A stretch of 37,136 bases of DNA. It comes from Promethearchaeota archaeon (lineage in GTDB: Archaea; Asgardarchaeota; Thorarchaeia; Thorarchaeales; Thorarchaeaceae). Below, piece after piece: positions 8,119 to 37,136 of this stretch (within the stretch, counting starts at the first letter, position 1; every line of letters begins with the position of its first letter). Where the stretch lies: assembly GCA_048939765.1 (NCBI GenBank), contig JBHLPF010000012.1, forward strand, positions 41,351 through 78,486. The letters are read 5' to 3'. The position numbers and the translations under genes were made by a program. Under the pieces are notes generated by a model. It had not been told where the DNA came from and searched no databases. It saw nothing but the letters and a program-made list of their open reading frames with translations.

Positions 8119-8157
8119 CGCCTGCAAAGAGTGAAATACTTGGATACATTTCATAGT

Positions 8158-8544
8158 ATGATTGCAATGTCTGTGTTTGATAATGACATGAAGATAAGGA
8201 AGATAGATGCTGATATTGACAAGTTCAAGGAGGACCTTCGTCTAGCAGAATCACAGCTTCAAGGTATTGATTCTCGCCTTGATGTTGATGTCGAACGCTA
8301 CCGTAGTGCTGCAAAAGCACGAAGGGATGAGTATGATGCCATAAGGCAGAGAGCCAAAGCAGCGGAAAATGCTTGGAAGTCTGCTGACAAGGATTTTCAA
8401 CATGCCAAAAAACAAAAGGACAAGCAAGTATCGGACCTAAAGAAACGTGTTGAGAATCTAAGAAAGCGGATCAAAGATGCCGCTAAGACTCGCAACAATC
8501 GAATCAGAGAGATAGAGAGGGAGAGAGAAAGGCAGCGGGCATGA
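8158..8544 (+). CDS. Small, highly charged coiled-coil protein
   Basis: K/R/E/D-rich heptad pattern throughout. Start could be 8158 or 8167. Confidence 0.7.
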   Translation: MIAMSVFDNDMKIRKIDADIDKFKEDLRLAESQLQGIDSRLDVDVERYRSAAKARRDEYDAIRQRAKAAENAWKSADKDFQHAKKQKDKQVSDLKKRVENLRKRIKDAAKTRNNRIREIERERERQRA

Positions 8545-8620: not shown

Positions 8621-9604
8621 TTGTCTATGAATGCATACTTTATGATAGTGTTGTTGTCATTTGTCCTGTTCTTTGTGGTGTGGGCTCTCGGCTGGCTTCT
8701 TGAAACTCTTTCCAGCTTTGTCCTAAGCACTGCGCGCAATCCTGGCTCAAGGGCATGGTACATGCTCGTAGGTCCTGGAGTAGCACTGCATGAATCCTCT
8801 CATGCCTTGGGATGTGTCTTCACTAGAACAAAGATTGTGGAGTTCAAACCGATCAATGTGACAGTCGAAAAGGATAGAATCATTCTTGGGTATGTTCGAT
8901 ATGTCAATCCTGCAAGTTCCTTGAAGCGTGCTGTGATTAACCTCGCACCAGTTGCCGTGTCACTAGTCCTTCTCACTTTCTTCGCGCTTGCAGCAACCTA
9001 TCTTGTCCCCGGAACTCGTCTTGGAGGGCAGGCAATCGACTTATTGTACACGCTCATTGATATCAAGTCACAGCCAGCAGCACTTGCTGACTGGATGCTC
9101 CCAGTGGAGTTGATTGGAGGCTTCCTGTACAGTTTTCTCTATGCATTCTCAGGTCTTACTGTCATTAATCCATTATTCTGGATCATAGCTTTTCTTGCAA
9201 TGACGATAATGTTCAGTAATGCGCCCTCTGATGTTGACATAAGGAATGCTAAGAATGGTCTGATATTCATCGTTGTATTCAATCTCATCTGGCTTTGTGT
9301 AGCATATGTCTTTCCTTCAGCTGGCCTTGTTCTCCTAGGCTTTTACGAGCTTCTTGCCGTTATGTTTGCACTAGCTCTTGCATTTGCTGGACTTGGATAT
9401 GGCTTCTTTATTCTAGTAGCAGGTCTTGCGAGAATCAGATCTCCCCTACAAGCAGTCCCACTACTTGGTTGTCTTGGCACTGGTATCTCTTTATCCTATT
9501 TCGCGATTGGCACAGCAGCCTTTCAGACAGTTGCATCCATTGGTGTCCTAGTAGCTTTAATGTTTCTTCTTCTAGCGATAAGGAGCACTAGAGCATCCGG
9601 GTAG
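8621..9604 (+). CDS. Polytopic membrane protein, putative M50-like intramembrane zinc metalloprotease
   Basis: PGVALHESSHALG (HExxH in a hydrophobic segment), LGYV, I.LAP, NAPS..D and many TM helices. Confidence 0.7.
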   Translation: MSMNAYFMIVLLSFVLFFVVWALGWLLETLSSFVLSTARNPGSRAWYMLVGPGVALHESSHALGCVFTRTKIVEFKPINVTVEKDRIILGYVRYVNPASSLKRAVINLAPVAVSLVLLTFFALAATYLVPGTRLGGQAIDLLYTLIDIKSQPAALADWMLPVELIGGFLYSFLYAFSGLTVINPLFWIIAFLAMTIMFSNAPSDVDIRNAKNGLIFIVVFNLIWLCVAYVFPSAGLVLLGFYELLAVMFALALAFAGLGYGFFILVAGLARIRSPLQAVPLLGCLGTGISLSYFAIGTAAFQTVASIGVLVALMFLLLAIRSTRASG

Positions 9605-9660
9605 CCAGTTGCTCCAGACTCGGACAAATTTGGACAGGTGGTTATATAGCTTCGATTGGA

Positions 9661-9894
9661 CAATATGATGTAGAGTTGTTCAATGGCAAGAAGCAAGTCA
9701 ATGAACTAATTCTACGGTCGCCGTGAGTTGCGCGGAGACAGAAAACGCCTGTGGAGAGGACGCAAGACGTCATCGTAAATCCTCCGAGATTTGCGTGATG
9801 CTGCTTCGATGAATCAGGAACTGAACTTCGACACGGAATGTTATGTCCATGTGTGTGTAAGTTTCAGGCAACGGTAATACCTACTTCCATATTG
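9661..9894 (+). ncRNA. Putative structured non-coding or leader RNA, family unknown
   Basis: TTATATAG at 9642-9649. Long hairpin 9670-9715. Hairpins 9768-9800 and 9821-9867. Long-range pairing 9720-9731/9868-9875 and 9661-9667/9888-9894. No credible ORF. Confidence 0.6.
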
Positions 9895-9925
9895 CTTAGG
9901 TCATTCCTATACTTGGGTACAGAGT

Positions 9926-10273
9926 ATGACCAAGATACAAATCGTCAGAAGACCTTCTCTAATTAGCCCTCGGCATCTCCTGAGGTACGTGTTCTCAACC
10001 GAAATGCAGGTTGAACAGGCAGCCAAGATTCTCAACGAGATAGTGCAGAGTGATGGCGTTGTTATGGATTCAGACTGGCGTCGATTCGTATTATCTAGCC
10101 GCGGGCTATATGTGAAAGTGATGAGAAAGCTGAGAGACACAGGACTGGTTGAAAAACGAATGGGTGAGTTCAGGCTGGCAAGTGATTTCTCCAACTCACT
10201 TGGAAAGATGGCTGACTTTTGGACTCAGATTGTTGGTTCCTTCCAAGGTGGAGACAAGGCGATTGCATTCTAG
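9926..10273 (+). CDS. Small winged-helix protein
   Basis: LYVKVMRKLRDTGLVEKRMGEFRLASDFS: recognition helix plus wing. Confidence 0.7.
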   Translation: MTKIQIVRRPSLISPRHLLRYVFSTEMQVEQAAKILNEIVQSDGVVMDSDWRRFVLSSRGLYVKVMRKLRDTGLVEKRMGEFRLASDFSNSLGKMADFWTQIVGSFQGGDKAIAF

Positions 10274-10275
10274 GG

Positions 10276-11856
10276 CTACTCTACCTCGCCTTCCTTGATC
10301 TTCAGTTCTCTAAGCGTAGAAACTGCTTTGTCTCCCTTGATCTTCAACACTCCAAGCTTGTCATATTGGCGGACCCATTTCGTTACGAGCCCGACAGGCT
10401 GGGCTAGTGTCTTCGCAAGGTCTGCAATGGGGATCGAACCAACTTCATCAACCAGGATGAGTACCTTGGTGCTGGACTCCTGGTTCAGCACATTTATGTA
10501 TCTCTTCACACGCTCGTCTGAGATATCTCTCTGCTCTAGGGCGACATCTCGCTCCTTCTCCATGAGTCGAGTAGCTTTCTCAAAGGCCTCCTTCTGCATC
10601 TCTAATTTCGGTATCTTATCTTGGGTGGCCTTCAATTCTGCTTCCAGATCGTAGATCTGCTGCTCCATCTCCTTTATACCCTTGATTTTGTCTTGAATTG
10701 CATTCAGTTCGTCGAGTCTGGATTGGCTCTCCACTTCTGCTGATTCTCTTTCCTTCACCAGGCTCTCCGCTTGCCGCTGCAATTCCAGAATTTTCGCTTG
10801 GCTCGTATCAGCCTCAGCGCGTTTCTCTTCCAGCGCCTTATCAACCAGCGCCAGCTTTGCTTCTAATGCCTCATATTCCGCATCTGACTTGGTGCTCGCT
10901 GTCTTGGCTACTTCGGCCTCGCTTTTATATACCTCTAGCTGGCTCTCTGCCTCCTTGTATTTCAATCGGAGTTCGTTAGCCTCTGCTCGGACAGTATCAA
11001 GTTCATCCGTTCTGGCTTTGATGGAGGCATCTTTCTTCACAATGTCTTGCTTGAGAGCCTCTACCTTGTCATCATACTCCTTGAGCTTACGAGCCAACTC
11101 CTCCGTTGCGGCATCAGCTGTCTTCGTCTTGTCCACGATGCTCTGCAATGACTTAATCTCTCGCTCGAGCTTCGCTATCTCTGCATCTTTTTCAGCTAGA
11201 CCAGTCTGGAGTGACATCCCATCTTCCTCCAGAGTTGTCATGAAAGATCTCACAATATCCTGCTGCTCCACGATTGTGGTTCTCAAATCAAGTTCGGACT
11301 CACGCACTCTTTGAGCGAACTCCTTGAATCGCTGTTGAGTTTGCTCAACAATCTTGTCAACAAGGTCCTTCTCAAGCGCCGCGAATTCGTTGTCGACAAT
11401 GTCAACAAATGTAGCTTCAATGAAGCTCTTGAAGAACTTCATTCTCAGTCGCTCCACCATTTCTTCAGAGATTCGCGACTTGAGCTCGACTACTTTTCCC
11501 CTAAAGGTCAGAAGTTGGGCTGCAAATACTCCTACGACACCTCTCTGTAGTGATGAAATATCGGCTCGAAGATTCTCCAGCTTTCGAAGAAGCGCATCAA
11601 ATCCTGCAACGGCTTCTCCTGCATCAGCCGGACTCTCGCGTCCCTCCGGGATCTCCATACCTTCGACAAATTCCAATGCCACCGCTGCAGCAGAAAGAAG
11701 ATCATCACTAGAATCCACCGGCATCATGACTGGTTCAGAATCATCCAAGCCCTGTGCCATTCCCTGAATATGTACCTCATCTAGTGCGGCTTTTTTTAGC
11801 GATTCTTGGAGTTTCGCCTTTTCCTCATCCGTCAACTTCTCGTCGTCAGGAGACAT
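10276..11856 (-). CDS. Long coiled-coil protein with an acidic N-terminus and a C-terminal winged helix
   Basis: Roughly 370 aa of E/K/L/A heptads. C-terminal KVLILVDEVGSIPIADLAKTL...VTKWVRQYDKLGVLKIKGDKAV. No Walker A motif. Confidence 0.8.
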   Translation of the reverse strand: MSPDDEKLTDEEKAKLQESLKKAALDEVHIQGMAQGLDDSEPVMMPVDSSDDLLSAAAVALEFVEGMEIPEGRESPADAGEAVAGFDALLRKLENLRADISSLQRGVVGVFAAQLLTFRGKVVELKSRISEEMVERLRMKFFKSFIEATFVDIVDNEFAALEKDLVDKIVEQTQQRFKEFAQRVRESELDLRTTIVEQQDIVRSFMTTLEEDGMSLQTGLAEKDAEIAKLEREIKSLQSIVDKTKTADAATEELARKLKEYDDKVEALKQDIVKKDASIKARTDELDTVRAEANELRLKYKEAESQLEVYKSEAEVAKTASTKSDAEYEALEAKLALVDKALEEKRAEADTSQAKILELQRQAESLVKERESAEVESQSRLDELNAIQDKIKGIKEMEQQIYDLEAELKATQDKIPKLEMQKEAFEKATRLMEKERDVALEQRDISDERVKRYINVLNQESSTKVLILVDEVGSIPIADLAKTLAQPVGLVTKWVRQYDKLGVLKIKGDKAVSTLRELKIKEGEVE

Positions 11857-36680: not shown

Positions 36681-37136
36681 TTATTGTCCATAGAAGCGTG
36701 CGAGGAATTCTTTGAAGTAGGGGCATAAGCTTCCCATCCAGTACAGATTGCCAAAGCATTCCTTTGAAAGAGCTTTTCGTTCAACGCGACATTCAAAGTT
36801 CCTTTCACCATCAAAAAACACGCATAGGTCGCTTTCGATGCTTGAGTCGTCGTAGATTCTTCTCCTGACCTCTCTCATCAGATCTGAGTCGCTGGAGCTA
36901 TACCAGTCCTCTGATTTGCCCATCAGTTCCTCAACCGACTTCACAATCTCTGGGTCTGGCTCCTCTTCCTTTATCCACTGAGTCACGAGTACACTCATAT
37001 CGGCATTGAAGGCAGAGAGCGGCCACCCAATGTCATCAGAGACCTCCCTGGCGCGTTTGTAGAAGGTGATAGCATCATCGAACTCCCCTGTGAGGAAATG
37101 AGCATCTCCTGTCAAGAAGAGCGCAAGGACGAGAAA
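36681..37136 (-). CDS. TPR-containing protein, C-terminal part (5' end lies outside the window)
   Basis: GDAHFLTGEFDDAITFYKRA is TPR-like. Four Cys near the C-terminus. Confidence 0.7.
   Translation of the reverse strand, partial: FLVLALFLTGDAHFLTGEFDDAITFYKRAREVSDDIGWPLSAFNADMSVLVTQWIKEEEPDPEIVKSVEELMGKSEDWYSSSDSDLMREVRRRIYDDSSIESDLCVFFDGERNFECRVERKALSKECFGNLYWMGSLCPYFKEFLARFYGQ

Follow-up and report, generated by a model that had tools for sequence, protein, structure and literature searches.

The 320-bp gap between a 327-aa membrane-protein gene and a 115-aa gene in the window (the whole 37,136-nt stretch of archaeal DNA analysed here) raises the question of what occupies it. The gap contains no ORF of at least 60 aa, in agreement with the initial annotation, which found nothing credible to translate and proposed either a novel non-coding RNA or a switch-like 5' leader of the gene at 9926. 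We consider it very probable that positions 9602-9874 are a non-autonomous, internally deleted tnpB element of the IS607 family that carries a guide-RNA scaffold. Observed here are the homology, the boundaries of the insertion and its empty sites, the structure with its covariation and the TAM-like motif, and the features concerned lie along the window as follows.

8621-9604: 327-aa membrane-protein gene, left neighbour of the gap
9599-9601, + strand: GGG, predicted TAM, directly left of the element
9602-9874, + strand: protein-less mini IS607-type element, 273 bp, with its boundary set by empty orthologous sites
9602-9641, + strand: left-end block (TAGCCAGTTGCTCCAGACTCGGACAAATTTGGACAGG), collinear with tnpB upstream sequence in L020, L015 and the mini copies
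9642-9649, + strand: TATA-box-like TTATATAG, from the tnpB promoter; the box is a prediction
9670-9715, + strand: hairpin 1, the leader hairpin of the MFE fold, with the fossil tnpB start (ATG 9684 ... TAA 9708-9710)
near 9710-9715, + strand: internal-deletion junction, inside hairpin 1
9717-9739, + strand: 5' hairpin of the omega-RNA scaffold, with covarying pairs (CG:11/GC:10, UA:16/CG:4)
9748-9820, + strand: RAGATH-18-like long stem-loop, a below-threshold match to Rfam RF03064
9821-9867, + strand: 3' stem-loop (hairpin 3 of the initial annotation), with a covarying outer stem (CG/AU, CG/UA, GC/AU, AU/GC)
9868-9874, + strand: scaffold tail GCAACGG, the right end of the element, where similarity among all copies stops
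9875-9894, + strand: predicted 20-nt guide (UAAUACCUACUUCCAUAUUG), in the host flank outside the element
9926-10273: 115-aa gene, right neighbour of the gap

Elsewhere in the window, the genes at 10276-11856 (- strand, 526 aa) and 8131-8544 (+ strand, 137 aa) are predicted to encode coiled-coil proteins unrelated to the element; neither protein matched a Pfam family above threshold.

A structured RNA is encoded on the + strand of the gap, as had been proposed. RNAfold of 9661-9895 gave a structure of -74.2 kcal/mol that contains hairpin 1 (9670-9677/9708-9715, 9678-9682/9702-9706 and 9684-9687/9697-9700), hairpin 2 (9768-9800) and hairpin 3 (9821-9828/9859-9867) just as they had been drawn, together with a terminal CAAUAUG/CAUAUUG helix. 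The excess of folding energy over shuffled sequence was z = -3.10 on the + strand, where 1 of 200 shuffles was as good, against z = -1.32 on the - strand.

Copies of this sequence are found well beyond the gap. By our covariance model, R1, the genome that contains the window (G000) holds exactly three: the window copy (locus A), a copy on contig C29 (locus B) that is 82% identical to the gap sequence over 272 nt, and a copy on contig C37 (locus C) that is 74% identical over about 170 nt. Matches to R1 occur in 26 of the 71 genomes of the order, at 1-37 per genome, and a DNA search of 41 relatives with the core (9716-9875, about 160 nt) returned a maximum of at least 18 copies in one genome. 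As is typical of repeats, the core often lies at the end of a contig. A weak additional R1 match in the window at 37056-37118 (13 bits), inside a minus-strand ORF, was judged to be chance. In one relative, G024 (L013, L022, L026, L030, L033, L035), there are at least 15 copies of a unit of about 316 bp, and the six units compared are 91-93% identical, which suggests that a related gene-less guide-RNA element has recently multiplied in this genome.

The source of the core is indicated by its longer relatives. In L020, L032, L014, L015, L023 and L031 an ORF of 408-420 aa stops about 120 nt into the core, and because these ORFs carry the Pfam domains HTH_OrfB_IS605, OrfB_IS605 and Cas12f1-like_TNB we identify them as TnpB. 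Directly upstream of tnpB in L014 is an ORF for a serine recombinase with a Resolvase domain (PF00239, 1.1e-18), which is the IS607 arrangement, and in L020 and L015 the left end of the element lies directly before tnpB. The window copy encodes no serine recombinase. An origin among IS200/IS605 elements (Y1 transposase), with hairpin 1 as the left-end hairpin, was considered and set aside, since a serine recombinase is encoded in a relative and fossil tnpB codons are what hairpin 1 aligns to.

That alignment extends over the whole left third of the element. Positions 9602-9715 keep the order of the full-length copies, namely the CAGYTGC...ACTTGGACAA block, the TATA-like box and the first tnpB codons, with ATG 9684 ... 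TAA 9708 aligned to the tnpB start M..KAYRYELD. From this collinearity the element can be read as a left end, a promoter and about nine codons, followed by a deletion of about 1.1 kb and the last 160 nt or so of the full-length form; the tnpB remnant in the 5' third thus amounts to about nine fossil codons, and fossil tnpB codons are present on either side of the deletion. The TTATATAG that the initial annotation had pointed out at 9642-9649 is indeed there. It is conserved among the mini copies as TTATATAG, TTATATGG or TTATGTAG and is aligned in full-length copies with the TTAAAA or TTATAA that precedes tnpB, and transcription is predicted from the sequence to start near 9670-9676. A hairpin occurs at the place of hairpin 1 in all seven mini copies examined, with its sequence altered in L011 and L012. 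Scanning for sigma-70 promoters and terminators yielded nothing of use in an archaeon. The C37 copy (G000:C37:125033-125316, L003) is a different deletion derivative, with an extra insert after the left-end block and more of the TnpB C-terminus left as a fossil (residues ~320-407, interrupted by in-frame stops). Its orthologue in G002 shares 98% identity with it.

The remainder of the element is the scaffold itself. The loop of its 5' hairpin donates GUUG (9727-9730) to a 4-bp pseudoknot with CAAC (9869-9872) in the tail; this helix shows 98.8% pairing across 21 copies, of which 16 have GC, 3 have UG and 2 have UA at one pair. Between the two halves of the pseudoknot lies the long stem-loop, built of a CCUG/CAGG base, a UGGAG // GAUGAAU internal loop and a variable apical stem, which is hairpin 2 of the initial annotation and covaries. 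In the 21-copy alignment A2, scored against the MFE structure of the window plus the pseudoknot, 82.5% of cells hold standard pairs and the covariation score is 0.218; shifting the partners by 1-3 columns lowers these values to 33-39% and 0.05-0.08. Across the homologous copies, 20 pairs are changed on both sides. These counts are support rather than a formal test, as the sequences are related and the structure was derived from one of them. Pairing is kept at 83% in the 16 gene-less copies and at 80% in the five full-length copies.

Two of the longer-range helices first proposed for this RNA must be revised in light of the scaffold. Within the closing helix 9720-9731/9868-9875, the GUUG/CAAC portion stands as the pseudoknot and the GCCG portion belongs to the local hairpin 9717-9739. 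The helix said to join the ends (9661-9667/9888-9894) does form in RNAfold, yet its 3' half is host flank, which relatives have at their empty site too, and so it is not part of the design of the RNA. The mutually exclusive pairings noted alongside them are accounted for by the pseudoknot and by chance pairs with flanking sequence.

Comparison with Rfam likens the long stem-loop to a known module. At gathering thresholds nothing in the window matches. The RNA is, as the earlier view had it, no SRP RNA, RNase P RNA, tRNA or riboswitch. With E-values in place of the gathering score, the top match is RAGATH-18 (RF03064), at 9748-9820 of the + strand, with 23.9 bits and E 0.042, a score that falls far below the gathering score of 44.9 bits. 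The match nevertheless spans the full model (1-71) and shares with it the conserved motifs CCUGUGGAG ... CGAUGAAUCAGGAA, and RAGATH-18 recurs below threshold at the corresponding position in L003, L014 and L013 (25.3-28 bits), so that over four copies it is the best and only recurrent Rfam similarity. Matches to RydC (E 0.64) and SpR10 (E 5.6) were taken as chance. Ren et al. 2024 (PMC11061315) showed RAGATH-18 to be the central module of the IS607 TnpB reRNA, with some 50 nt before it and some 60 nt after it, a 20-nt guide next, and a pseudoknot connecting the loop of the 5' hairpin with the 3' flank; reRNAs of this type have been structurally characterised. Many bacteria, among them Bartonella, Methylacidiphilum, Competibacteraceae and Ktedonobacteria, also contain the exact core motif GCCUGUGRAGAGG...GAANCAGGAA, and the same pattern matches MAGs of Thorarchaeota, Heimdallarchaeota and Hydrothermarchaeota (L061-L140), from which we conclude that the reRNA core is widespread and common to both domains.

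The ends of the element are fixed by relatives that lack it. The 327-aa gene has orthologues in 33 of 41 family genomes, and in G002, G009 and G011 the 115-aa gene lies directly next to it, the element being absent, such that ...CATCCGGG is joined directly to TAATACCTACTTCC... (with a slash for the junction, ...CCGGG/TAATACC... in short form). Across the empty site G002 reads ...AGAGCATCCGGG/TAATACCTACTTCCATATT..., and across the occupied site the window reads ...AGAGCATCCGGG(TAGCCAG...GGCAACGG)TAATACCTACTTCC..., with the element in parentheses. GGTA is found at both junctions, leaving the boundary ambiguous by 4 bases; G002 has a single GGTA copy, and there is no target-site duplication. The element has inserted into the 327-aa membrane-protein gene precisely at its stop codon (window 9599-9604 and 9873-9877), which is GGG TAA at the empty site of G002 and GGG TAG when occupied, the stop being supplied by the element and the protein left unchanged. 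Both occupied and empty states were also found in Logan contigs from related strains in public sediment and mangrove metagenomes. The features by which a mini-element is recognised are all found: it is gene-less, it keeps both ends, it has several copies, and it is polymorphic for presence and absence.

Occupancy at orthologous loci does not simply follow relatedness. Locus A is occupied in G000 and G014 (L019), locus B in G000, G014 and G001, and locus C in G000 and G002. The three relatives with an empty locus A are closer or equally close ones, and G002, which is empty, is closer than the occupied G014; judged from these sequences, the pattern would imply either scarless loss or repeated insertion.

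This distribution also bears on the proposal that the gap is a leader of the gene at 9926. In a reduced form of this proposal, the element would act mainly as a promoter-bearing 5' leader that alters expression of the 115-aa gene as a side effect of insertion. The element is oriented towards 9926 and has a TATA-like box, neither an oligo-T tract nor a hairpin terminator was found after it, the distance between the upstream stop and the 9926 start is only 51 nt at the empty site, and the arrangement is kept in G014. The gene at 9926 is intact without the element in G002, G009 and G011, however, and the C29 and C37 copies precede genes unrelated to it, so the RNA is independent of its downstream gene, as the first of the two initial proposals would have it, the switch-like leader is not supported, and linkage to 9926 is not conserved across genomes. 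Nor is there a ligand-type conserved core or an Rfam riboswitch match. We regard a primarily leader-like role as unlikely.

Under our preferred reading, that of a non-autonomous tnpB element, the scaffold should end where the element does and the sequence beyond it should serve as guide. All 25 copies agree up to GGCAACGG and then diverge, being unrelated beyond that point unless their loci are orthologous, and the end of the scaffold coincides with the element boundary and with the empty-site junction. The guide of the window copy is on these grounds predicted to begin at 9875; its length of 20 nt is the value given in PMC11061315. The guide differs between loci, and that of the window recurs unchanged at the orthologous locus of G014 and at the G002 empty site. 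When the three G000 guides were searched against G000 they matched their own flanks only; the best other matches, of 16-17 nt with one mismatch and E of at least 0.5, were taken as chance.

The left junction is G-rich at all six loci examined: CCGGG(/TA) in the window, GAGGG(/TA) at C29 (locus B), TGGGG(/TT) at C37, GG at both L020 and L011, and GGGG at L015. At the empty site of G002 (CCGGG/TAATACCTACTTCCATATT) the G-rich motif lies immediately before the guide-matching sequence, and a TAM next to a guide-matching target at the empty site is what the homing model requires (PMC10055086; 10.1101/2023.11.20.567912). Published TAMs of IS607 TnpBs are AGGAG and GAGGG (PMC11061315), which the G-rich left junctions resemble, and the GGG left of the window element is a putative TAM. 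The guide starts at unrelated loci resemble each other in pairs, CAAGGATTAT (C29) with CAAGAACTAT (C37) and TAATACCTA (window) with TAATACGTA (L020 of G018), a likeness that may be due to chance or to a preference for target sites that extends past the G-rich motif.

Taken together, these features suggest how such an element would persist. The left-end promoter would drive a transcript made of the leader hairpin, the scaffold and about 20 nt of flank as guide, and binding of the scaffold would fall to a cognate TnpB provided in trans. Scarless excision would leave the GGG-flanked empty site (...GGG/TAATACCTACTTCC...), which TnpB would cut at its predicted target, the GGG-flanked TAATACCTACTTCCATATTG, and homologous recombination after the cut would then restore the element. 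Transcription, TnpB binding and cutting are steps that we infer.

Whether the window copy could still be served in this way depends on the TnpBs of its own genome. A search of the G000 assembly, which is 88.5% complete, found no cognate TnpB and no serine recombinase of this element family, leaving use in trans unsupported in this genome; G014 and G013, of the same genus, do encode a cognate TnpB. The sole TnpB gene found in G000, on C12 (G000:C12:28626-29714; L036:1495-2685), encodes an intact protein of 396 aa with the D/E/D catalytic residues present, but is only 37-39% identical to cognate TnpBs, and neither R1 nor Rfam detects a related guide-RNA scaffold beside it. Because no cognate TnpB was found and the C12 TnpB is distant and without such an RNA beside it, the window RNA is most likely the orphan relic of a once-mobile element, and continued use of this copy is hardly to be expected.

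The alternative is that the RNAs of the three gene-less G000 elements are not decaying relics and have been maintained, either as working trans-acting guides kept by the host or for a distant TnpB, or as host-retained promoters. It derives from the occupation of orthologous sites across several species (loci A, B and C) and from the conservation of one locus well above its flanking gene: between G000 and G014 the element at locus B is 92.5% identical and the adjacent gene 77.7% (the C29 copy, L002, against G014:C189, L009, with an adjacent gene region of 403-409 aa). Constraint could account for this excess, as could gene conversion or recent homing. Every helix of the scaffold has likewise been kept without coding constraint, as have the promoter and hairpin 1, and the catalytic residues of the one G000 TnpB are intact. 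Against this, the element at locus A is 78% identical between the same two genomes and so evolves like its flanks (72-81%), the element was lost from or never present in closer relatives, the G000 guides match only their own flank, and the distance of the C12 TnpB from the cognate proteins has already been noted. We consider such maintenance very unlikely.

The chance that this is a free-standing RNA family of a new class, unrelated to transposons, is close to nil, since a significant fold on one strand, a promoter-like box of its own and silence in Rfam at gathering thresholds are set against direct homology to tnpB 3' ends and element right ends and an insertion/empty-site polymorphism, each of which already contradicts it, as well as fossil tnpB codons flanking the deletion and a RAGATH-18 core. 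The novelty claimed in the initial annotation is not supported, given this homology and the RAGATH-18-like core of TnpB reRNA in the scaffold. Several points also count against the tnpB-element reading that we prefer: the low RAGATH-18 score, the missing cognate TnpB and serine recombinase in G000, a TATA box and transcription start that are predictions only, the occupation of G014 when the closer G002 is empty, and a full-length scaffold that overlaps about 120 nt of tnpB, which an ISFba1-type reRNA does not.

Among the closest known systems, the ISFba1-type reRNA (RF03064, PMC11061315) shares the order of its parts, namely a 5' hairpin, a RAGATH-18-type stem-loop, a 3' stem-loop, a pseudoknot and a guide, as well as the conserved CCUGUGGAG ... 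GAUGAAnCAGGAA within the long stem-loop, a position at the right end of a tnpB element, a G-rich left junction (GAGGG at locus B) and a serine recombinase in one full-length relative of the window element. It differs in that the archaeal copies score only 24-28 bits against RF03064 (gathering score 44.9), that published reRNAs lie outside the gene, that tnpB has been deleted from the window copy, and that the host is an Asgard archaeon and not a member of the Firmicutes. Gene-less elements that encode omega RNAs and need TnpB in trans have been described (Meers et al. 2023, PMC10055086), and the PATE-like IS200/IS605 derivatives of that study resemble the window element in being protein-less, in keeping both ends and the scaffold, and in needing TnpB from elsewhere. 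They belong to bacterial elements of the Y1-transposase (IS605) type with palindromic ends, whereas the window element is of IS607-type lineage, has no terminal hairpin requirements or target duplication, and fuses the left-end tnpB promoter directly to the scaffold. The IS607 omega RNAs of CboIStron and ISXfa1 (Zedaveinyte et al., 10.1101/2023.11.20.567912) are alike in a guide RNA that overlaps the right end, in a TGGG-type TAM and scarless serine-recombinase excision, both predicted for the window element, and in nexus stem-loop pseudoknots with the scaffold 3' end; unlike them, the window copy has neither a group I intron nor a nuclease gene.

The window RNA is thus a case of a known mechanism class, carried by a selfish element of a familiar type, and is neither a new RNA class nor a leader of the gene at 9926. 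Because gene-less omega-RNA elements and RAGATH-18-type reRNAs have both been published, it adds little to mechanism, but the locus is a clean natural example in which an exact empty site, a G-rich TAM-like motif and a guide are found together. Its value is mainly one of annotation. Many structured repeats of about 160 nt in Asgard genomes resemble new non-coding RNAs, and no Rfam model reports them at threshold; they are the TnpB guide-RNA scaffolds of IS607-type elements and of their gene-less derivatives, and the R1 covariance model could be used to mask or annotate this scaffold family in Thorarchaeota-like genomes.
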